In this document: in pieces, positions 7,212 through 30,994 of the stretch | How the letters are laid out: each line of letters opens with the position of its first letter | Numbering within the stretch: the stretch's first letter is position 1 | Assembly (NCBI GenBank): GCA_964357075.1 | Contig: CAYHJR010000001.1 | Coordinates: 1 to 35,486 of the forward strand | DNA from: an uncultured Candidatus Saccharibacteria bacterium | Lineage (GTDB): Bacteria; Patescibacteriota; Minisyncoccia; Phycocordibacterales; JAKFXT01 | Reading direction: 5' to 3' | Length of the DNA: 35,486 bases | The notes under the pieces: generated by a model | Seen by the model: the letters and a program-made list of their open reading frames with translations, nothing else | Told to the model about the DNA's origin: nothing | The model's database searches: none | Made by a program: the position numbers and the translations under genes

Positions 7212-8171
7212 TTATTTTAGATTGACTCCGTATCCAGCCAACATTTTTTTGATTTCTTGAATTCCTTTGTTTCCAAGTCCGTCGATGTCAAGAATATCCT
7301 CTTCTCTTTTTCGAGCTAGCCCTCCTAGAGTGCGAATATTCGCGGTCGTCAAAGCATTAATGGTCCTTTGTGATAAATCCAAAGTTTCAATTCTCGTCTT
7401 TAACAATTCCGGGTCCACCATTGATTTACTTTCACGAGGGGAAGCCACTTCTTCTTTAACCGGCAAGGCATAGTCCTCTTCCTTAAAGCCGACAATTGAT
7501 CTTAATTGATTTATCATTATTTCAATCGATTTCTCAAGCGCTTCGCGCGGGGTAATAATGCCGTCCGTTTCAATAAAAATTTTAAGACGATTAAAGTCGG
7601 TCCTGTTTCCAACGCGCATATTTTCCACTTCGTAGTTCACGCGTCTTATCGGAGTAAAGCTGGCGTCAAGGGCGATTGAACCGATGTCCACTTTCTCTTT
7701 TTGCAGATTTTCTTTTGAAACATAGCCAATACCTCTTTCAACTCTGATTTCCGCCTCAAAAGAAGCGTTTTTTTCGGTTAAGGTCACAATGTGCTGGTCT
7801 TTGTTGACTATTTCAACTTGTCCCGGTGCTTGTATGTCTTTGGCGCTAACGTCTTTTACTCCCTTAGCCGAGAGAGTCAAAATTTGCGGCTCATCGGAAA
7901 GCACTTTGATACGAATACGCTTCAGATTTAAAAGAATGGTCACCATGTCTTCCTTGGCGCCCTGTAGAGTTGAAAATTCATGATTAACCCCTTCGATTTT
8001 GACATGCGTAATTGAGGCCCCCGGTAGCGAGGAGAGAATAATTCGTCTGAGCGAATTACCCAGAGTGTGCCCGTAGCCCGGATAAAGACCGTCTATTTCA
8101 TAAGTTCCGCTGGTTGCCGTTTCCTCAACCACTTTTGGTTTTGAGGGCAAAATGACGTTAATTTCAGACAT
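7212..8171 (-). CDS. rpoA: DNA-directed RNA polymerase subunit alpha
   Basis: N-terminal dimerisation domain (GHTLGNSLRRILLSS-like) and a C-terminal domain (LDLSQRTINAL...). Canonical position after rpsD. Confidence 0.95.
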   Translation of the reverse strand: MSEINVILPSKPKVVEETATSGTYEIDGLYPGYGHTLGNSLRRIILSSLPGASITHVKIEGVNHEFSTLQGAKEDMVTILLNLKRIRIKVLSDEPQILTLSAKGVKDVSAKDIQAPGQVEIVNKDQHIVTLTEKNASFEAEIRVERGIGYVSKENLQKEKVDIGSIALDASFTPIRRVNYEVENMRVGNRTDFNRLKIFIETDGIITPREALEKSIEIMINQLRSIVGFKEEDYALPVKEEVASPRESKSMVDPELLKTRIETLDLSQRTINALTTANIRTLGGLARKREEDILDIDGLGNKGIQEIKKMLAGYGVNLK

Positions 8172-8233
8172 GGCGTGTTTTAGTTAATTAAAAACGAATA
8201 ATGATTCTAATACAAAAATCACCGATTGACAAC

Positions 8234-8845
8234 CTATCGACTATAAAATTCCAAGACGCCGGAAAGATCAAAATGAAGTTCTGGACGCGAATAATTTGGA
8301 ATTTGTTTTACTAAACCCTCGCCTTTTTTAATATCGAAAGTTACCCAGGAAGGCGCGGTATAATCTTTTAATCTTTCCTCAAGGGTTGCAAAAAGTACGC
8401 TTCCTTTGCTCCCCTCTCTTATTTTAATAATGTCGCCGACTTTAACTTCAGCCGAAGGAATGGTATTTTTGCGTCCGTTCAATAATATGTGGCCATGAGA
8501 AACCATTTGGCGCGAAGCTCTCCTGGTTGGAGCCAAGCCAAGGCGATAGACCACGTTATCCAATCTTTGCTCCAATGAGTGATAAAGATTTTCAATCGGC
8601 TTTGTTCCTTTGATTTTATTCGCCCTTATGACGTAATTTTTAAATTGTTTTTCCATAATGCCGTAGGTGTAGCGGACTTTTTGTTTTTCCAAAAATTGCC
8701 GGCCGTATTCGCTTCTGACACCTCTTCGTTTTTTGCTGTTTTGTTCGCTTCTTGATTGGGACAGGGCAAATTTTTGCGTCTGACATTTTTCAAACACGGC
8801 GGCGCCCAATCTTTTTCCTATTTTATATTTTGGTCCTACTTTCAT
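8234..8845 (-). CDS. rpsD: 30S ribosomal protein S4
   Basis: YGRQFLEKQKVRYTYG...RLDNVVYRLGLA.TRRASRQMVSHGHILLNG (S4 domain). Confidence 0.95.
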   Translation of the reverse strand: MKVGPKYKIGKRLGAAVFEKCQTQKFALSQSRSEQNSKKRRGVRSEYGRQFLEKQKVRYTYGIMEKQFKNYVIRANKIKGTKPIENLYHSLEQRLDNVVYRLGLAPTRRASRQMVSHGHILLNGRKNTIPSAEVKVGDIIKIREGSKGSVLFATLEERLKDYTAPSWVTFDIKKGEGLVKQIPNYSRPELHFDLSGVLEFYSR

Positions 8846-8892
8846 GATACGAATGGTTACGAATTTAAACGAATGATACGAATTATGACTAA
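8846..8892. repeat. ACGAAT-rich leader element, copy 1 (fills the whole rpsK-rpsD spacer)
   Basis: Coding strand: ATTCGTATCATTCGTTTAAATTCGTAACCATTCGTATC followed directly by the rpsD ATG. Confidence 0.85.
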
Positions 8893-9327
8893 TTAAATGC
8901 GTCTTGGTTTCGGCGGTTTTGGCCCATTATGCGGAATGGGCGTAACATCTTTAATTGAAAGAATTGACACGCCTTTTCCGGCAAAGGCCCTAATGGCCGA
9001 TTCTCGTCCCGAGCCCACTCCTTTGACAATGACGTCAGCGTCCTTCATGCCAACCGCAACCGCTTTTTCGCCGATCAATTCTCCGACTTTGGCGGCGGCG
9101 AAAGGAGTTCCTTTTTTAGCTCCGGTAAAACCCAAAGAACCGCTTGATGACGAGCAAACAGCATTACCTTTCTTGTCGGTCAGGAGAACGCGGGTATTGT
9201 TGTAAGTCGATTCAACGTAAAGAATTCCGATATCCAATCTTTTTTTGGCAGATTTGGAAAGCGACTTATCCCTAAGTTTCTGGTCAACTTCCCCGCCGCT
9301 TTTTGTGGCAATGCGTTTTTTTCCCAT
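8893..9327 (-). CDS. rpsK: 30S ribosomal protein S11
   Basis: YVESTYNNTRVLLTDKKGN...GFTGAKKGTPFAA; canonical order. Confidence 0.95.
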   Translation of the reverse strand: MGKKRIATKSGGEVDQKLRDKSLSKSAKKRLDIGILYVESTYNNTRVLLTDKKGNAVCSSSSGSLGFTGAKKGTPFAAAKVGELIGEKAVAVGMKDADVIVKGVGSGRESAIRAFAGKGVSILSIKDVTPIPHNGPKPPKPRRI

Positions 9328-9336
9328 AATATTATT

Positions 9337-9717
9337 CTAAGTCTTTTCAACTTTACGTCTGCCGGAGGCCATTGTTTTTCTAACATTGCCGCGCACGGTT
9401 CTCGAATTGCTTTTGGTGCGCTGCCCCCGTGCCGGCAAATGCTTGGCGTGTCGGCTTCCCCTAAAAGTTTTAATATCTTTTAGTCGCTTGATATTTCCGG
9501 CAACCATACGGCGCAAATCTCCTTCTATCTTCAAACTCTCTATGACGCTTCTCAAGGAGTTTTCCTCTTCTTTGGAAAGTTCATTCGTTTTTTTCGCTCC
9601 CGAAACTTTGGCTTTTTTCAAAATATTACCGGCAGTTCTAATACCAATACCATAAAGCGCCGTCAAGGCGTATTCTATTCTTTTATTATCCGGCAATGTA
9701 ATTCCAACTATGCGCAT
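9337..9717 (-). CDS. rpsM: 30S ribosomal protein S13
   Basis: MRIVGITLPDNKRIEYALTALYGIG...RGQRTKSNSRT. Confidence 0.95.
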   Translation of the reverse strand: MRIVGITLPDNKRIEYALTALYGIGIRTAGNILKKAKVSGAKKTNELSKEEENSLRSVIESLKIEGDLRRMVAGNIKRLKDIKTFRGSRHAKHLPARGQRTKSNSRTVRGNVRKTMASGRRKVEKT

Positions 9718-9718
9718 A

Positions 9719-9832
9719 TTATCCTTGTCTTTGTTTATGTCTTGGGTTTTCGCAAATAACGCTGATTCGACCTTTGCGTCGAATCATTTTGCACTTAGCG
9801 CAAATTTTTTTGACAGAAGCTCTTATTTTCAT
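9719..9832 (-). CDS. rpmJ: 50S ribosomal protein L36
   Basis: Below the ORF-track size cutoff. My own translation is [37 protein letters not shown], with ATG at 9832..9830 and TAA at 9721..9719. Confidence 0.9.
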
Positions 9833-9883
9833 GATACTAATGGTTACGAATGAATGCCCCGGCGGTAGCCGAATGATACGAAT
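9833..9883. repeat. ACGAAT-rich leader element, copy 2 (with a 16-nt GC-rich insert)
   Basis: Coding strand: ATTCGTATCATTCG-GCTACCGCCGGGGCAT-TCATTCGTAACCATTAGTATC followed directly by the rpmJ ATG. Confidence 0.85.
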
Positions 9884-9901
9884 AACTTATTGATTTACAC
9901 T

Positions 9902-10123
9902 TTATAGTCGGCGCGTTATTTTCCCCTTTTCCTCGTTATACGGGTCAAGCTCAATTTCAACGGTATCTCCAATCAAAACCCTGATCCTGTGCAGGCGCAT
10001 TTTGCCCGAAAGATAACCGAGCATGATTTTCTGACCCTCCTTCAATTCAACGCGAAAAAGCGTATTTGGAAGCGCCTCTAAAACAACTCCGATTCGTTTT
10101 TCCTTTTCTTTTCCAAGACCCAT
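9902..10123 (-). CDS. infA: translation initiation factor IF-1
   Basis: [62 protein letters not shown]... (S1-like). I use the internal ATG at 10123, because the 28 codons the track adds upstream are not IF-1-like. Confidence 0.9.
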
Positions 10124-10159
10124 TACAATCGATTTTCTACAGAACGCTATTGAAACGCG

Positions 10160-10252
10160 ATGATAACACAGATAGTGCAAAATCGTCAACTTCAAAAAAT
10201 GCCCCATTTCTGCGGTTTTTGAATATTACTACAATATGCCCCAGATGGTCAA
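10160..10252 (-). promoter_or_regulatory. two candidate sigma70-type promoters upstream of infA
   Basis: Minus strand has TTGACC (10252..10247), 18 nt, TAATAT (10228..10223); and TTGACG (10189..10184), 18 nt, TATCAT (10165..10160). Confidence 0.3.
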
Positions 10253-10278
10253 ATTTCACCTGTAAGCTTAGGGGAATC

Positions 10279-11640
10279 TTATATAGCACCGAGAATGTTT
10301 ATCTTTATTTTCCCCCTGTCTTCCGGAAGGGCTGATTTCCATTTGGGGATAAGAGAGGTTTCCGCTTTTTCAATTCCGGAATAATTTTTATAGATGTCGT
10401 TTACCAGATTTTTCGGTATACCCAAGAGGTCTTCTTTCAATTTTTCGGAATCAATCACGTAGGTCAAAGTGGTCGCGCCGGAAAGCGCAAAAGGAAATAC
10501 TCCGGTTTGCCACGGACTGCCTTCTTTGGGGTCCGGCTCAATAGCTAATTTATCGAAATAATTGGAAGTTATATTTTCGTCTCTGTAATCGTCTATATAT
10601 TCTTTGGCCAAATTTCTGGCCATTTGCTCTTTGGAGATTACGACCGCGTTAACCACCGCTTTAATTTCAACTTCACTGCTTTCATCACTTGAAATCGATT
10701 CGAAACTTATATAAATGGCCTTGTCGTAAAGAATAAAACTATTCGGCACTTGTTCTTTGATTCTATTGGTCAATTTGTCCTTGAGAGTAATCATGAGTTC
10801 TTTTCTCGCCAGTTCAATGTCCAAAGCGGAGGCGGTTTTAATGGTTCCTTCAAAACCTCCGGTCATCGGCACTTTTGACCGGCCGTAGAATTTTTCGTAG
10901 CGAGGGTCGCCCTTAAAACCAGGAATCGTAAAATCAGTCAAATCTATATTGTATTTTTCTCCCGCTTCATCGGCCGCAACTTCTATCTCAATACTCCCGG
11001 GTGTAACTACATTTCCCTTTTTTGTTTGACCGGGGACGACGATAGATGATTCGATTCTGTAAATCAAACCATCCGGTGTTAATAGACGAGTATTTTTAAT
11101 TAGGCGTTGTGGCTGGCTGTTGTAATCGTTATAAATTACCACTTTGCCTCGGGCGCGTTTCTCGACTTTCTTTTCACCGGTTGTGGAGACGCTTTTCTTT
11201 TGAGTTTCGTTTAAATTTATAACCTCAAACCCTAGCTCATTTTCTTGAGGATTCTTTTTAGCCATGAAAGATTTATTTATGACTACGGACCTTTGTTTTG
11301 GTTCAATTGTAACAGTCGCTCCGGCATTAAAAAATAAATATAAAAGATATATCGCCCCGACTCCGGCCAAAAACAAGAAGAAAAATAGAATTTTTTTGAA
11401 TCCAAATCCTTCGCCGCCGTTACTGGCCGGAATTATTGGTTTCGAATCATCGGAAGACGCCTTTATTGAAAATTTATCTTTGCTTTGCGCCGAAATTTCA
11501 TTGTTGGTATTATGCGCCCTCTCTATTTGCTTGCCAGAATCAAAAAAGCTTTCTCTTGGCGTTCTTAAAGGAACGGGAATGCTTCTTATCCCCTTAATTT
11601 CTTTGGGCGGTATGACATCTTGTATTATTTTCCTTTTCAT
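10279..11640 (-). CDS. single-pass membrane protein with a large extracytoplasmic domain, function unknown
   Basis: About 85 aa of polar N-terminus, then one TM helix (ILFFFLFLAGVGAIYLLYLFF), then about 350 aa with no motif I can name. Sits 40 nt downstream of the FtsA/PilM-like gene. Confidence 0.6.
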   Translation of the reverse strand: MKRKIIQDVIPPKEIKGIRSIPVPLRTPRESFFDSGKQIERAHNTNNEISAQSKDKFSIKASSDDSKPIIPASNGGEGFGFKKILFFFLFLAGVGAIYLLYLFFNAGATVTIEPKQRSVVINKSFMAKKNPQENELGFEVINLNETQKKSVSTTGEKKVEKRARGKVVIYNDYNSQPQRLIKNTRLLTPDGLIYRIESSIVVPGQTKKGNVVTPGSIEIEVAADEAGEKYNIDLTDFTIPGFKGDPRYEKFYGRSKVPMTGGFEGTIKTASALDIELARKELMITLKDKLTNRIKEQVPNSFILYDKAIYISFESISSDESSEVEIKAVVNAVVISKEQMARNLAKEYIDDYRDENITSNYFDKLAIEPDPKEGSPWQTGVFPFALSGATTLTYVIDSEKLKEDLLGIPKNLVNDIYKNYSGIEKAETSLIPKWKSALPEDRGKIKINILGAI

Positions 11641-11680
11641 ATTTAAAATCCTGATTTATATTTTAGCACGGAGATTAATT

Positions 11681-12898
11681 TTAATTGTAAACATCCTCCA
11701 AAACCTGCTTATTGGCGTTGGCAAAGGAAGCGGAGATAGCCAAAATCGCGTCGAATCTTATATCAAGCCCGAAAGTGCAGCTATCGGCCAGAGAGGCGGC
11801 ATCCAAAGTGTGAATTGAAAAACCGTGGGGTACCAGAGTTTGGCTGGCAAAACCCATTTTAATAATGGCCGGGCCGAACATATCTTTAATGTCGGTATCC
11901 ACGAATATGTAAATATTTTCCGGAATGGCCACTTCTTCGGATAAATTAACCAGTGCTTTTTCAAGGTAAGAAAACCAGAGACCTTGAGTTTCCTCTACAA
12001 CGGGAACAAAACTTTTCTCTTCTTCTTTGGACATTTTTTTGTCGTGATAAAGTCCCAAACGGAAAAGGGCGTCTTCCGGGGTTGTTTTCATTTTTCCGGC
12101 AATTAATCTTGAGAGAGAATGCTTGCCGAACGGAAAGGAAACAGTTTCCAAAAGCGCGTGGTCTTTTATAAGGGAAACTTCCGAGACGTCGCTGCCGACC
12201 GTCACGAAAAGGAAATTGCTTTTGGAATCCACCCTATTTCTTATGGCGATAAAAGCGGCTAACGATAGCGGCTCAATCACGATGGGCGCCGGAGTGATGT
12301 TTCTTATAATTCTCGAAATGGCCTCAATCAAATTTTTATCAATTTGTGTCTTGAATATGGAAAGTTCAACTCCTTCAGCCACTTTGCCGTAGGGATTATC
12401 ATTATGATAACCATTTATTTTAATTTCAATTATGTGCTCCTGAACCGTATAAGGACTGCTGCCAAGCAGAATCTCTTTGTGCGCCTCCGGTAATAGGGTG
12501 CGATGAGAGGTAATAAGATTTTTTACGAGATTTTGAGAAATTGTGAAAGGTTTTTTTTCTTGGTGGGTAATAATTGAGGTGTGTGATAGGTAATAGGGTT
12601 CCGCTATTATGCAGCAAACCTCTTCGGCCACGTAGCGTTTTTTGCCCAAAGAGGAAGAACGCAGGGCTTTGGCTATATCCATTAAAACCTGTTCCAGCGA
12701 TGAAAGAGCCAGAGGCAGGGCCTGCTTATTTAGAAGTGTGCCGATTTTTTGTTCCCCGGAAACGGTATAAAGAATGTGCGGCACACCTTTTCTAATTTCG
12801 ACTACGGCACCCCGGGCGTTCCCTTTACCGGCGTCCAAAAATAAAATCAGCTTTATTTTGTTGGTTTCTTTTGTTGAGAAAAATGAAAAAAGATTCAT
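11681..12898 (-). CDS. divergent actin-fold (FtsA/PilM-like, ASKHA) protein
   Basis: The N-terminal LFLDAGKGNARGAVVEI resembles the phosphate-1 strand. FVTVGSDVSEVSLIKDHALLETVSFPFGKHSLSRLIA resembles the DxGGGTTD...IPxGG block of FtsA/PilM, but the glycine motifs are degenerate. Confidence 0.5.
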   Translation of the reverse strand: MNLFSFFSTKETNKIKLILFLDAGKGNARGAVVEIRKGVPHILYTVSGEQKIGTLLNKQALPLALSSLEQVLMDIAKALRSSSLGKKRYVAEEVCCIIAEPYYLSHTSIITHQEKKPFTISQNLVKNLITSHRTLLPEAHKEILLGSSPYTVQEHIIEIKINGYHNDNPYGKVAEGVELSIFKTQIDKNLIEAISRIIRNITPAPIVIEPLSLAAFIAIRNRVDSKSNFLFVTVGSDVSEVSLIKDHALLETVSFPFGKHSLSRLIAGKMKTTPEDALFRLGLYHDKKMSKEEEKSFVPVVEETQGLWFSYLEKALVNLSEEVAIPENIYIFVDTDIKDMFGPAIIKMGFASQTLVPHGFSIHTLDAASLADSCTFGLDIRFDAILAISASFANANKQVLEDVYN

Positions 12899-12935
12899 CC
12901 TGTTAGAAGTTAAGTATTTAAGGGCGCATTACCAG

Positions 12936-12971
12936 AAAAAGAGCCATTGGGCGAATTCGTCTTTATGGCTC
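12936..12971 (-). terminator. candidate intrinsic terminator downstream of alaS
   Basis: Minus strand: GAGCCAU, a 17-nt loop, AUGGCUC, then UUUUU. A second inverted repeat (12953-12964 / 12989-13000) overlaps its loop. Confidence 0.4.
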
Positions 12972-13032
12972 GGAAACAGAAAAATGATAAAGACGAACTT
13001 CTAGTAGGACCCATCGCCGAATTATAGCAGAA

Positions 13033-13067
13033 AAAGCTTTCGGCTTTCAGCTTCCAGGTGTTAGTTT
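13033..13067. repeat. degenerate heptanucleotide array
   Basis: aaagctt tcggctt tcagctt ccaggtg ttagttt, just downstream of the alaS stop (13075). Confidence 0.7.
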
Positions 13068-13074
13068 CTTAAAT

Positions 13075-14865
13075 CTAGCTCAATGTTCCTTTGATACGGC
13101 GGATACCGGCGGAGATGGCTTCTTCTTTTTGAATTTTAAAAATGGCTTTCCGAACGTTTCCGTCAGGCCCCACTACACTTCCAAGGTCGGAAGTGTTATG
13201 GACATGCGGTCCGCCGCAGAATTCCAAACTAAAGTCCCCAATTTTATAAACCCGAACCTTATCACCGTATTTTTCTTCAAAAAGACCGATAGCGCCAAGT
13301 TTTTCCGCCTTCTCAATCGGCAAATCTTCAAAGGTGACCGGCATGGCTTCATCAATTTTTTGATTTACCAAATCTTCCACTTTTTTCTTTTCTTCATCAG
13401 TCATTTTACGGTCAAATGAAAAATCAAAACGAAGACGCTCCGGGGTAATATTACTGCCCTTTTGAGACACTTTTTCTCCCAGGGTCTGCTTTAGGGCTTT
13501 GTGCAGAAGATGAGTAGCGGTGTGATATTTAACAGACATGTCGCTTGCATCAGCCAATCCCCCCTTGAATTTCTTTTCCGCTCCGACTCTGGACAGCTCC
13601 TGGTGTTTCTTCATTTCCTCTTTGAATCCCGCCTCATCCACTTCTTTTCCCTCCTCTTTGGCCAACTCTTTGGTCATTTCAATTGGAAAACCGAAAGTGG
13701 AAAAAAGTATAAAGGCCTCATGACCGGTAATTTTTCCGGTAGAAAGTTTTTTGAATTCGCGCAAACCGTCGGTAAGTGTTTTTCTAAAACGATTTTCTTC
13801 TTCGGTGATTTCTTTTTTGATTTCAGAAACTTTTTCCTTCAAGTTCGGATAAACGTCTTGATATTTTTCAATCACGACTCCCGAAAGAAGAGCCAAATCA
13901 CCTTCTCTCATTTTCAATTTATCGCCGGAAAATATTGCCCGGCGTAAAAGACGGCGCAGAATATATCCTTGGTCGGTATTAGACGGGGTGACGCCGTCGG
14001 CAATCAAAAACACGGAAGTTCGTATATGGTCAGCTACTATGCGTTTTGCTTTAATATCGTGCTCGATGGAAAAATCATCAATTTTCCGCATTATCGGCTC
14101 AAACAAATCCGTTTGGAAAATATTGTCTTTTCTTTGCATCAGCATGGCCAAGCGTTCGAGTCCAGCGCCGGTATCAACGTTTTGCTGTGTAAGTTTTCCG
14201 ATTACTTTCCCGTCTTTCTTTTGAAATTCCATGAAGACGTCATTCCAGAACTCTACGATTTTTTGACCATCCGTTGCTTTAAGAAAATTTTCTTTAGAAA
14301 GCTCGCCCAGTCCCTTTTCCGTAAGGTCATAAAACATTTCCGTATCGGACCCGCAGGGCCCGTTGTTTCCCGGGCTCCACCAATTATCTTTAACACCCAA
14401 AAAATATATTCTTTCTTTTGGTATGCCCAAGGACTCCCAGACCTCAGCCGACTTTTCATCCTTGGGCGCGTTTTCATCACCTTCAAAACAGGTTATATAG
14501 AGGCGTTTTGGGTCAAGGCCGAGTCCCTCTTCTTTTGAGGTAATAAATTGATAGCTCCAGGTTATGGCTTCGTCTTTAAAATATGAGCCGAGCGACCAAT
14601 TGCCAAGCATTTCAAAAAAAGTGACGTGGGTGTTGTCCCCGACTTCTTCTATGTCTTGTGTCCGGACGCATTTCTGGACGTTCACCAGCTTGTCCCCCTC
14701 CGGGTGAGGTGTTCCCATTAAATAGGGAATCAAAGGTTGCATGCCGGCTGTCGTAAAAAGGACAGACGGGTCATTTTCCGGAACAAGCGAAGCGGAAGGT
14801 AAAATGGCGTGTCCGCGGGACTTAAAAAAAGATAAGAAGCGCCGGCGAATTTCTTCAGATTTCAT
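13075..14865 (-). CDS. alaS: alanine--tRNA ligase, short form (catalytic, tRNA-binding and editing domains; no C-Ala domain)
   Basis: RFLSFFKSRGH...FTTAGMQP at the N-terminus. Editing-domain motifs HTATHLLHKAL and CGGPHV. The protein ends about 30 aa after the editing domain: 596 aa, versus about 870 in typical bacteria. Confidence 0.95.
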   Translation of the reverse strand: MKSEEIRRRFLSFFKSRGHAILPSASLVPENDPSVLFTTAGMQPLIPYLMGTPHPEGDKLVNVQKCVRTQDIEEVGDNTHVTFFEMLGNWSLGSYFKDEAITWSYQFITSKEEGLGLDPKRLYITCFEGDENAPKDEKSAEVWESLGIPKERIYFLGVKDNWWSPGNNGPCGSDTEMFYDLTEKGLGELSKENFLKATDGQKIVEFWNDVFMEFQKKDGKVIGKLTQQNVDTGAGLERLAMLMQRKDNIFQTDLFEPIMRKIDDFSIEHDIKAKRIVADHIRTSVFLIADGVTPSNTDQGYILRRLLRRAIFSGDKLKMREGDLALLSGVVIEKYQDVYPNLKEKVSEIKKEITEEENRFRKTLTDGLREFKKLSTGKITGHEAFILFSTFGFPIEMTKELAKEEGKEVDEAGFKEEMKKHQELSRVGAEKKFKGGLADASDMSVKYHTATHLLHKALKQTLGEKVSQKGSNITPERLRFDFSFDRKMTDEEKKKVEDLVNQKIDEAMPVTFEDLPIEKAEKLGAIGLFEEKYGDKVRVYKIGDFSLEFCGGPHVHNTSDLGSVVGPDGNVRKAIFKIQKEEAISAGIRRIKGTLS

Positions 14866-14903
14866 AATACGAATAGTTACGAATTAAATCGAATGATACG
14901 AAT
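14866..14903. repeat. ACGAAT-rich leader element, copy 3
   Basis: Coding strand: ATTCGTATCATTCGATTTAATTCGTAACTATTCGTATT followed directly by the alaS ATG. The element also supplies the last codons and the TAA of the MGMT gene. Confidence 0.85.
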
Positions 14904-15189
14904 ATACAGTAAAATCTTTGGCCTTTCCAGTTTGTTTCATAGCGCCTTCTTTTTTTAATAATTTGATTTTTTTCTTAACTCCTCCGCGATTGTAATTGCC
15001 GATTTTTCCGTCTGAACGAATAACCCTGTGGCAAGGAATGGTTTTATCAAAATTAGCAGACATTATGGTGCCAACGGCGCGCGAGGCACCGGGATTTCCG
15101 GCGCGGCGCGCCACTTCCCCGTAGGAAAGCGTTTCTCCCCGTGGAATATCGCGCACTACTTTTTGCACCCTTTCTCCAAACAAACTCAT
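14884..15189 (-). CDS. methylated-DNA--protein-cysteine methyltransferase family protein (single-domain MGMT/Ogt)
   Basis: Active-site PCHRVI motif with the cysteine retained, plus the helix-turn-wing region YGEVARRAGNPGASRAVG. Confidence 0.85.
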   Translation of the reverse strand: MSLFGERVQKVVRDIPRGETLSYGEVARRAGNPGASRAVGTIMSANFDKTIPCHRVIRSDGKIGNYNRGGVKKKIKLLKKEGAMKQTGKAKDFTVYSYHSI

Positions 15190-15190
15190 G

Positions 15191-15961
15191 CTACTTTTTT
15201 TTCTTACTTTTCAAATCGGCACTGGCCGCTTCAAATCTGTAATTGCAGTACTGACATGTCTCATTATTTTTGGGAACCACTTCTCCCAAGAGACACTGTT
15301 TGATTTTTGGCAGCAACTCATCAATCCAAAAAGTATCTCCCACGCAGGGCAACAAAATCATATTAAACTCCAATTTTCCGTCGAAAGAAGCGACATCTTT
15401 CCGGCCGTTTACATAAACAAAGTATCCGGTATTAGACACCTTGAAACCATTTTTACGCAATAACCATTGATACACCTCCATCTGTCTTTTGTATTGCGCG
15501 CCAAGGTCGCCATCCAAAGTTATTTCGTCTTTTTTAGAAGTCGCTTTGTAATCAACAACCAGGAGTTCGCCGTCAGAGTTTATCCAAACGTCGTCAACTC
15601 CGCCGCGGACGGAAAGGTTCGTCTCTTTGTCAACGTACTCAACCCCCTGCGACATGGCGTTTCTCCACTTATTCATATCGGGGTGTTTGAACGGCACGGC
15701 ATTCACTCCGTACTTCACCATTATCTCGTGCGGATTTTGTTCTTCCCGCAAAATATCAAATTCTTTCTTAAGAAGTTCGTCAACTGCGATGTTAAGCGTC
15801 AAGGGATAGGTGCTTGGCCTTCCTATTCCCAATCTTTGGTCAAGATAGAAACATTTTGGGCATTCTAAAAACAAATCAAGCTTTGACCTTGAAATCCGAA
15901 AAGGTTTAAGGTCTCCTGGGTCAAAATTGCCCCGCGCTCTTACTTTGTACGCGTATGCCAT
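15191..15961 (-). CDS. PD-(D/E)XK nuclease (RecB/Cas4-like) with cysteine clusters
   Basis: N-terminal SRSKLDLFLECPKCFY (RecB/AddB/Cas4-type start), core GGVDDV...LLVVDYKAT (D...D/ExK), QMEVYQWL (QxxxY), and a C-terminal CQYC plus further Cys residues. No cas genes nearby. Confidence 0.75.
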   Translation of the reverse strand: MAYAYKVRARGNFDPGDLKPFRISRSKLDLFLECPKCFYLDQRLGIGRPSTYPLTLNIAVDELLKKEFDILREEQNPHEIMVKYGVNAVPFKHPDMNKWRNAMSQGVEYVDKETNLSVRGGVDDVWINSDGELLVVDYKATSKKDEITLDGDLGAQYKRQMEVYQWLLRKNGFKVSNTGYFVYVNGRKDVASFDGKLEFNMILLPCVGDTFWIDELLPKIKQCLLGEVVPKNNETCQYCNYRFEAASADLKSKKKK

Positions 15962-15962
15962 T

Positions 15963-16406
15963 TTATCCTTTTAGTTTGCTTTCAACGTCCCACAATAATT
16001 CCGAGAACATAAAAATAGTTAGAATCGTTGCCATCGTAGCAAGGGTAAAATAGCCAAAGCCGACCGTAATGCCGACGCCGGCCGAAACCCACATACCGGC
16101 CGCCGTGGTAAGCCCCTCCAATTTGTTTTCATGATAAATAATTACGCCTCCGCAAAGAAATCCTATGCCGGTTGCGATTGCGGCCATAACATAAAGAGGG
16201 TTGACCCCTCCTTGCGGGAACTGTTCCATTGCCATTATTGAAGCAATAATAAAAAGGCATGAACCCAAAGATACTATTGAATAAGTGCGCAAACCGGCTG
16301 TTTTGTGGGCTATAGTTCGCTCTATGCCAAGAAATCCTCCCAAAAACATTGCAACAAGCAATTTTATCAAAAGCGGCAAATTTTGCGCTAAAAAATTCTC
16401 AAACAT
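15963..16406 (-). CDS. MgtC/SapB family membrane protein
   Basis: LLVAMFLGGFLGIERTIAHKTAGLRTYSIVSLGSCLF is the MgtC signature region; 4-5 TM helices. Confidence 0.85.
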   Translation of the reverse strand: MFENFLAQNLPLLIKLLVAMFLGGFLGIERTIAHKTAGLRTYSIVSLGSCLFIIASIMAMEQFPQGGVNPLYVMAAIATGIGFLCGGVIIYHENKLEGLTTAAGMWVSAGVGITVGFGYFTLATMATILTIFMFSELLWDVESKLKG

Positions 16407-28544: not shown

Positions 28545-29988
<1,444 letters not shown>

Positions 29989-30067
29989 ATTAATAAATTA
30001 GATCGAATAGCACAAACACTATTTTATTCGTTGAATTTGTGGTCATTCGTAGATTCGTACTTAACGG

Positions 30068-30994
30068 CTATTTCAGCACTTCAATACCGCTCACAATTTC
30101 CGACATCTCTCTCGTGATAATGCCTTGCCTTTCCTTGTTATAGTCCCGAGTCAAATTTTTTACTACATCGCGAGCCTTGTCTCCGGCGCTTTTCATCGCC
30201 ACCATTCTGGCCGAATGTTCCGAGGCCTTTGATTCCAAAGCCGCGTAAAAAATTATAGTTTCGGCCAGAAATTCCAATAAATTATCCAAAACGGTTTCCG
30301 CGTCCGGCTCATAGGTGTAAGCGACTTTTTTTTCTTTTGGTCCGCGATAAAAAAGGGAGGCATATTTGCCCTTGCGCGGCCGTACGCTTAAAAGCACCTC
30401 CTCAATCTCTTTCGGGACTAAAGGGAAAATTTGGTGAGAGGTTGCTTCCTGGGCAAAAGTAGAAATAAAATTGCTATAAACAATATAAACCTTGTCAAAT
30501 CGTCCTTCCCGAAAATTCTTTTCCGCTTCGTGTCTTAGGTGGACAACGTCGAAAAGCGAAATCTTGTCATCAAACGATTTTTGAGAAAAAATTGTTTCAT
30601 ATTTGCGGCGCGCCACAAATTCGGTTGCCTTGCGGCCGATAGTGATAAATGAGGCTTTGCCTTCCAACTTTTTCTCTTTAATTAGGCGCGACAAAAGCCG
30701 AAGTACGGCGCTGTTTAAACTTCCGGCCAGTCCTCTGTCGCTGGTTATAACTATAAAAAGCGCTCTTTTTATGTCGCTGCCATTTTTTTCTCCAATCAAT
30801 GGATGCTTTGTAAATTCGTGCTGGGAAATAATGCGCTTTAAAATTTTGAAGGCGGAAAAAGCATAAGGTCTTGCCGAAAGCGCCCATTCCTGGGCCTTGC
30901 GCATTTTGGCGGCCGAAACCGCTTCCATGGCTTTTGTGACCTGTTCGGTTTTTTTGACAGCCCGTATTTTTGCTTTGACTTGTTTTAATGACAT
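30068..30994 (-). CDS. atpG: F1 ATP synthase subunit gamma
   Basis: MSLKQVKAKIRAVKKTEQVTKAMEAVSAAKMRKAQ, and a C-terminal ERQGIITREMSEIVSG. Confidence 0.93.
   Translation of the reverse strand: MSLKQVKAKIRAVKKTEQVTKAMEAVSAAKMRKAQEWALSARPYAFSAFKILKRIISQHEFTKHPLIGEKNGSDIKRALFIVITSDRGLAGSLNSAVLRLLSRLIKEKKLEGKASFITIGRKATEFVARRKYETIFSQKSFDDKISLFDVVHLRHEAEKNFREGRFDKVYIVYSNFISTFAQEATSHQIFPLVPKEIEEVLLSVRPRKGKYASLFYRGPKEKKVAYTYEPDAETVLDNLLEFLAETIIFYAALESKASEHSARMVAMKSAGDKARDVVKNLTRDYNKERQGIITREMSEIVSGIEVLK

Follow-up and report, generated by a model that had tools for sequence, protein, structure and literature searches.

The window, i.e., the whole stretch of 35,486 nucleotides analyzed here, comes from a 783-kb, 86-contig Patescibacteria MAG from groundwater (42% GC). 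Four copies of a short element are found in it, all on the minus strand and each flush with an ATG: those of rpsD, rpmJ, alaS, and atpD. Pfam matches for the window genes are S4, AlaRS, ATP synthase beta subunit, IF-1, and an MGMT-type domain, while the rpmJ ORF translation has the L36 N-terminal signature. The four flush ATGs match the N-termini of the orthologues. Read on the minus strand, each copy consists of the L module ATTCGTATCATTCG, either a 5-nt spacer or an 18-nt insert (GCTACCGC(C/A)GGGGCATT(C/A), here I1), the 19-nt right (R) module ATTCGTAACCATTCGTATC, and the ATG. The R module has four matches in the window with two or fewer mismatches and none in 100 shuffles. The original prediction had described one common element abutting the start codons of four unrelated genes, with its words recurring at 9-10 nt, about one helical turn. 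Both statements hold: all four copies are confirmed, and ATTnGTA words are spaced by 9, 10, and 10 nt. The GC-rich insert that it had seen in two copies is also present, but it is 18 nt rather than 16 nt long and substitutes for the 5-nt spacer.

The copies, which are called A-type right arms below, differ in completeness. At rpsD and alaS only the right arm is found. The rpsD arm (8846..8883, minus strand; 11 relatives aligned at the RpsD N-terminus) has its L module at 8870-8883, the 5-nt spacer at 8865-8869, and the R module at 8846-8864, followed by the ATG at 8845-8843. The alaS arm (14866..14903, minus) has the L module at 14890-14903, the spacer at 14885-14889, and the R module at 14866-14884. 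As had been noticed from the sequence, this arm supplies the last codons and the stop of the upstream MGMT-like gene: the tail YSYHSI is encoded from the left module, and the stop codon lies at 14884-14886. At rpmJ the right arm carries insert I1 (9833..9883, minus; L 9870-9883, I1 9852-9869, R 9833-9851, ATG 9832-9830) and is preceded by a stump of a left arm. This degenerate 18-nt remnant, AGTGTAAATCAATAAGTT (9884..9901, minus), stands directly after the infA stop; together with the last A of that stop it begins AAGTGT and agrees with the family left end AAGTACAAATCAACGAATG at 13 of 19 positions.

Both arms are present at atpD. The right arm, again with I1, occupies 29938..29988 (minus; L 29975-29988, I1 29957-29974, R 29938-29956, ATG 29937-29935). 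It is followed by a core (29989..30025, minus) at the position that the nuclease gene holds in the full cassettes described below, and by a left arm (30026..30064, plus) with four ATTnGTA words and a terminal CTTAA. The left arm is inverted relative to the right arm and starts 4 nt past the atpG stop (30068-30070), and its minus strand retains a vestigial cassette start, TACGA ATG ACC. An inverted copy facing the atpD element was thus rightly recognized, although it had been taken for a partial one: it is a complete four-word left arm (30026-30059) plus CTTAA. The long-range hairpin suggested between the two fares poorly, with a z of -1.2 that is no better than shuffles. A fifth site, upstream of the infA promoter-like site, is tentatively assigned to the family by sequence resemblance (GGGGCATATTGTAGTA ... 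ACCGCAGAAATGGGGCAT, 10199..10245, minus). The word ACCGCAG-AAAT-GGGGCAT reported there earlier (10199-10216) is real and lies beside GGGGCATATTGTAGTA, but it is probably a decayed relic only. At the gathering threshold, Rfam 15 finds a single tRNA in the window, and at other array loci rRNA, a group I intron, and tRNAs.

Genome-wide, about 28 loci carry ATTCGTA-like word arrays. Identity among the arms with I1 is 88-95% over 50-55 nt and does not extend into the flanks, which are unrelated. Three kinds of ends can be distinguished. The A-type end consists of the L module, an optional insert, and the R module with the terminus TATC or TATT. The B-type end has one further word and a tail (..ATTCGTAT ATTGGTA TCGYGTTA). 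The C-type end is the left arm on the opposite strand (..CATTCGTTGATTTGTACTTAA). At about ten loci, the entire intergenic spacer is made up of an imperfect inverted repeat formed by facing left and right arms. Tandem forms such as L-I2-R'-L-I1-R are also present, and contigs of the assembly end at these repeats. Among 22 copies of the R module, only one of 50 substitutions falls in the ten ATTnGT core positions (p = 3e-15). Since substitutions avoid the cores, it is the phased words that are conserved and not the whole sequence.

Several loci show further arrangements. GC-rich hairpins are found inside arms, always between the inner and the outer words, at C11:6303-6337 of the window genome (G000; CCTGCCTGTGCGTGTCCGCACGCAGACAGG), at loci L139-L155 of G038 (CCCCGACGCTTCGGTCGGGG..), and at L097 of G055. 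Since this is the site of the inserts I1 and I2, these inserts may be reduced hairpins. A composite without a gene lies in the 23S-5S spacer of the window genome (C20:11749-11829, L038), in reverse orientation to the rRNA; the 3' end of 23S is at about 11845, 5S is at 11176-11281, and a 23S fragment contains a group I intron (Rfam RF00028). At C72:922-938 (minus), three ATTTGTA words in the A-type arrangement stand in frame within a 450-aa ORF (384-1736), which may represent an in-frame arm insertion.

The position of the A-type end relative to start codons is unusually exact. Among the 23 terminal R ends in the window genome, 16 have an ATG at +2 and one at -1 (ATTCGT directly followed by ATG; binomial 1e-22), and all 17 of these ATGs are real gene starts. 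The bias toward genuine start codons expected from the four window copies is therefore seen among the genome-wide copies as well (16-17 of 23). The genes concerned are rpsD, rpmJ, alaS, atpD, ssb, a Cu-ATPase gene, an RNR-beta-like (nrdB-like) gene, rplK, nusG, pilC, obg, dnaB, rplC, yqeY, and others, named mostly from N-terminal sequence, with Pfam applied to the window genes only. The other end of the element behaves differently: it lies 1-17 nt from the upstream stop, or far more in long spacers. The variable distance on the left indicates that remnants of the ancestral spacers remain there, and the asymmetry between left and right argues against simple trimming by deletion. Anchoring is kept even where a spacer is 104-331 nt long and offers further ATG triplets that are not used, which argues against a bare ATG as the target site. 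The six A-type ends that are not flush lie at convergent gene ends, in the rRNA (23S-5S) spacer, or within an ORF; at least two of them belong to reversed arms that abut the stop codon of a convergent gene.

The A-type end also occurs in other CPR MAGs, as found by a pattern scan of all GTDB species genomes. The pattern included the ATG and gave 26 matches against about 17 expected by chance, and array structure is seen in the CPR matches only. When five other CPR genomes were searched with a pattern lacking the ATG, seven new A-type ends were found, four with the ATG at +2, one at +1, and two not flush. Newly flush starts include those of rpmJ, mraZ, a probable dnaA, and a probable efp. Altogether the A-type end is flush in six genomes of distant CPR lineages. 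B-type ends in the five genomes run on into the outer word and are never flush, and in the A-type the host ATG takes the place of that outer word. In G069, G057, and G038, gene-less copies have the full terminus and are mostly not flush; they end a few to about 30 nt before the next ATG or are buried in other repeats. Anchoring thus characterizes the A-type but not the family at large. The novelty lies in this A-type right arm, whose TATC or TATT stands directly against a genuine ATG. In G069, tatD (L122, C8:39700-40150) seems to start at an ATG of an element terminus (GTATGTTTAAC), giving MFNYIDIH where the protein of G057 (L170) has MKYIDIH, which suggests that an arm end can donate a start codon and the first codons.

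The origin of the arms is indicated by a small nuclease gene. The sole PF13366 gene of the window genome (C9:15184-15504) lies in the nusG-rplK spacer between inverted and direct word arrays. It matches GxxExxY models only (PF13366 and TIGR04256) and not GIY-YIG. The left arm (TACAAATATACGAATGGTCGCGAAT..) includes the ATG of the gene, TACGA ATG GTC GCG AAT encoding MVAN. The right arm, which is of the A-type, extends to the rplK ATG and shares 94% identity with the atpD copy. In one Kaiserbacteria MAG and one Saccharibacteria MAG, a GxxExxY/PDDEXK_3 gene likewise stands immediately upstream of an A-type end; the L module there codes for the C-terminal IRIIR, and the TAA within ATTCGTAA is the stop codon. 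The same layout is found at 13 stand-alone PF13366 genes in the order (window genome included) as well as in the Kaiserbacteria and Saccharibacteria cassettes. The two arms of a cassette are inverted copies of each other, mostly with the ATG in the left arm and the C-terminus and stop in the right. The 12 further cassettes of the order use lineage-specific words (e.g., ATTTGTA, ATTCGCA, ATTCGTG, and ATCCGTG), and their right arrays end -1 to +10 nt from the ATG of the next gene.

Nuclease gene and dispersed arrays also co-vary. In a sample of 61 genomes across the order, one per family, PF13366 is found in nine of nine array-rich genomes and in six of 52 array-poor ones (Fisher p = 2.9e-7). 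Several genomes, G031 and G063 among them, have a PF13366 gene without dispersed arrays; searching G031 with its cassette-type pattern ATTYGTG gave zero matches. G072 (L048, L068) has 13 ATTCGTA arrays, six of them flush with starts, and no PF13366 match was detected in it; this may be due to incompleteness of the MAG or to persistence of the arms in the absence of the gene. The ATTYGCA pair pattern, applied to G034, has its only match in the arm of the cassette itself; the rest of that genome has 11 ATTCGTA-type pairs. PF13366 also occurs inside frames of 760-907 aa in G003 (C21:2240-2578), G035, G049, G051, G063, and G073, apparently as a result of in-frame insertion of the nuclease domain into large host genes. 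The function of PF13366 is listed as "Unknown" (PMC3424549), and a search of the literature found no published description of GxxExxY-associated repeats. Taken together, the assignment of the element as a right arm from a modular repeat family that is dispersed in the genome and associated with GxxExxY genes is well supported.

Relatives of the window genome lack the element at the same places. The rpsK-rpsD, atpG-atpD, and infA-rpmJ spacers, compared in 8 to 11 relatives per locus including four congeners, are mostly 2-35 nt long and without the element, and the infA stop and the rpmJ ATG are separated by only 2-6 nt. Three congeners and one genome of the same family have neither an excess of ATTCGTA pairs over a reversed-pattern control nor PF13366; the fourth congener also has no pair excess, and its PF13366 domain occurs only within an 887-aa frame. 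The sole other contig with an identical RpsD, from a Hainich sample, has an identical spacer including the arm, while an exact-protein look-up for L36 returned no contig on record. The rpsK-rpsD spacer of another genome of the order (L020, G014) is filled from stop to ATG by a different array, AAACTT repeated every 8-9 nt or so, and spacer-filling arrays of unrelated words may be common in the order.

No SD-type purine motif is found in the arm 5-10 nt before the start. The missing Shine-Dalgarno (SD) sequence had been noted before, correctly, but it is a property of the whole genome and not of the element: SD-like motifs precede 69 of 709 ORF starts, against 69 in a control window. The window MAG has no 16S gene, and its anti-SD state is read from relatives. 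The 16S 3' tails of a congener (GGATTAATTCAAGA; L160, G004) and of two members of the order (GGAATATTTCAATT, L161, G038; GGAATTTTTCAAAT, L163, G016), compared with GGATCACCTCCTTA, are without CCUCC. It is reported that a subgroup of Parcubacteria has lost the anti-SD (PMC9297842). The copies are not substitutes for SD sequences, because the organism initiates without SD pairing everywhere. Altered pairing with a changed 16S tail was also considered and rejected; the tails of relatives (GGAUUAAUUCAAGA etc.) are complementary to the words over at most 3-4 nt. Note that the arm and the start region fold worse than 84-99% of shuffles (z = +1.0 to +1.7).

From these observations, the window copies are probably gene-less derivatives of the arms of a nuclease cassette, with words that are likely bound by a protein and with an A-type end anchored to starts. 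A full cassette runs from the host stop through an inverted TACGAAT-type left arm with the nuclease ATG and the nuclease gene to the right arm, in which direct ATTCGTA-type words code for the C-terminal IRIIR and are followed by the TAA stop and then the host ATG. Gene-less copies would have entered formerly tiny spacers in this lineage, the arms being presumably mobile. The ATTnGT cores, which recur once per helical turn, most likely serve as binding sites for a protein, the cassette nuclease being the obvious candidate. The A-type arm lacks the outermost word of the full arm and terminates exactly at the A of a genuine ATG. Two processes may contribute to this anchoring. One is insertion or copying specific to the junction, e.g., nuclease-triggered templated repair or resolution at the ATG. 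In the second, the arm would be tolerated or selected as an A/U-rich, unstructured leader free of start codons, which would spare SD-independent initiation. No consistent target-site duplication is found at the junctions, where the AT shared by word and ATG blurs the boundary. Against this explanation stand also the G072 arrays with no PF13366 match and the genomes with the gene but no dispersed arrays, and a PD-(D/E)XK protein of about 130 aa is not a known transposase. More tentatively, A-type ends could be the ends of a selfish cassette that were placed against genuine start codons in distant CPR lineages and then became a universal SD-free leader; this is rather unlikely.

The start-codon anchoring itself can be read in several ways, and we rank junction-specific insertion or repair together with tolerance as an SD-free leader first, followed by selection as a leader, a ribosome relay, and a leaderless promoter. 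If the arm is a portable leader for SD-independent translation that is kept because it boosts or standardizes initiation, in line with the shared translational leader or enhancer suggested in the original prediction, the cassette would be its origin only. The lack of SD usage throughout the genome and of the anti-SD in relatives, the low structure of the arm with its start, and the absence of ATG, GTG, or TTG within the arm would all suit such a leader, as would the 17 genuine starts that are flush (five of them of ribosomal-protein or nusG genes) and the recurrence of flush ends in the six CPR genomes. However, congeners express the orthologues behind spacers of 2-35 nt that lack the arm, the six exceptional A-type ends lie where no leader is needed (convergent gene ends, rRNA spacer, ORF interior), and the same word arrays are not flush in G069, G057, and G038. 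One of the flush-end genomes is moreover a Saccharibacterium, a group that usually retains the anti-SD, and the constraint on phased cores is more suggestive of a protein that binds DNA or RNA than of a simple lack of structure. A leader kept for its function is therefore doubtful. In the relay, a mini-ORF beginning at the left-arm ATG would stop at the TAA or TAG of the R module, at a distance of 11 nt from the host ATG, and pass the ribosome on by SD-free re-initiation. The frame of the first ATG is open up to the R module in six of nine gene-less composites, against three of 18 other frames (p of about 0.001, for copies that are related to one another; the first ATG is the left-arm ATG in all but one composite). 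The mini-ORFs stop at -14, -11, or +5, a TAA or TAG is present at -14..-12 in 15 of 17 flush arms, and the nuclease ORF of full cassettes ends at the same place. But ATTCGTA words are poor in stop codons, so that open frames are partly compositional, and many co-directional spacers are long (with a median of 48 nt according to a crude gene call), so that re-initiation is not obligatory. With the rpsD, rpmJ, and rplK copies (right arm only or with a stump) having no ATG-initiated ORF to feed the stop, and with the atpD and nrdB composites stopping 42-55 nt early, we consider a relay improbable.

Two readings place the function of the arm in transcription. An outward-facing promoter from which transcription starts at the A of the ATG, producing leaderless mRNAs, would explain the exact spacing. 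The hexamer at -13..-8 is mostly nAnnAT (AACCAT, AACTAT, AATAAT), it is a perfect TATAAT in the nrdB-like copy, and TGn stands immediately before it in the ATTTGTA variants. TANNNT is enriched about 2.5-fold at -15 and -12 before operon-first genes (those with at least 60 nt of spacer upstream, by a crude longest-ORF gene call), suggesting some leaderless or short-leader mRNAs. On the other hand, a sigma-70 consensus scan of 8000-16000, a range that covers three copies (atpD is outside it), finds no site ending in an R module, and from the only nearby sigma-70-like match, which precedes alaS, the arm would be transcribed. The tRNA genes have canonical TTGNNN-17-TATAAT promoters and thus point to an ordinary sigma factor. 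The 18-nt insert shifts any surrogate of a -35 element by 13 nt with conservation unaffected, the key A is replaced by G in the copA and G071 copies, and most copies lie within conserved operons. Such a promoter is accordingly unlikely. A promoter of the Bacteroidetes type (TTTG/TAnnTTTG) was considered as well; some word junctions are similar to it, but it was rejected given the ordinary sigma-70 regions upstream of tRNA genes. The original prediction had also proposed a binding site for a regulator coordinating ribosomal, aminoacyl-tRNA synthetase, and ATP synthase genes. Operators for an OmpR/PhoB-like factor acting on direct repeats phased 10 nt apart would fit the helical phasing and the invariant ATTnGT cores between variable inter-word bases. 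Yet the downstream genes have no common theme (e.g., ssb, Cu-ATPase, pilC, obg, dnaB, and a methyltransferase gene), copies are also found in the 23S-5S spacer, at convergent gene ends, and reversed, congeners lack the sites at these genes, and the presence of the sites tracks the nuclease gene and not a regulator. A regulon is very improbable. The remaining suggestion, a REP/MITE-like element with an insertion preference, turns out to be the best supported, in the form of gene-less nuclease-cassette arms missing from the spacers of relatives.

If the more tentative reading of a start-anchored selfish end is true, insertion anchored to starts, or resolution after insertion, would be a choice of target without a described precedent; mobile DNA would show a novel type of target specificity should the anchoring reflect how insertion takes place. 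The start-anchored ends would then also constitute a natural experiment on start-codon choice in the absence of the anti-SD. The same 38-51-nt sequence is tolerated before 17 unrelated genes, of which many are probably essential, in a compact Parcubacteria genome, and the shared arms limit what upstream sequence bacteria without the anti-SD can require at their start codons. For the GxxExxY/PDDEXK_3 family, the phased arrays of ATTnGTA words provide a concrete candidate substrate.

The closest known system is that of the NTS/SRM repeats and the Ssn nucleases, which are of the GIY-YIG type (Chenal et al. 2025, PMC11893778). In both systems a repeat that is dispersed in the genome, often around important genes, also stands on either side of a small nuclease gene, and the presence of the gene and the abundance of the repeat co-vary (across phyla in PMC11893778). 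They differ in that the nuclease here belongs to the PD-(D/E)XK GxxExxY family instead of GIY-YIG, and its role is a putative one. The repeat consists of phased direct 7-nt words, whereas theirs is a hairpin, and here the inverted arms contain the start and the stop of the gene, with one arm type anchored to start codons.

Similarities are also found with REP/REPIN-RAYT systems, which likewise comprise short non-autonomous intergenic repeats, single or as inverted doublets, and one helper gene flanked by the repeats. However, REPs are palindromic hairpins, while the arms here are made of direct words that fold worse than shuffles. The 0.78-Mb window genome has four matches to Y1_Tnp (PF01797; Y1 transposases, IS200/RAYT-like) at C56:4140-4505, C6:6588-6887, C18:6959-7180, and C15:7618-7854, and none of the four is flanked by ATTCGTA arrays. 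Like MITEs, Correia elements (CREE), and pneumococcal BOX elements, the copies are small and modular, have optional internal modules, are adjacent to genes, and could alter their expression. They have MITE-like imperfect terminal inverted repeats of 72-78%; at atpD, 29940-29957 and 30034-51 are 78% complementary. Unlike in those elements, no consistent target-site duplication is found and the partner gene is not a recognized transposase gene. Moreover, the right end of the element here directly adjoins the start codon and is not scattered within the spacer, and the arm codes for part of the partner protein.
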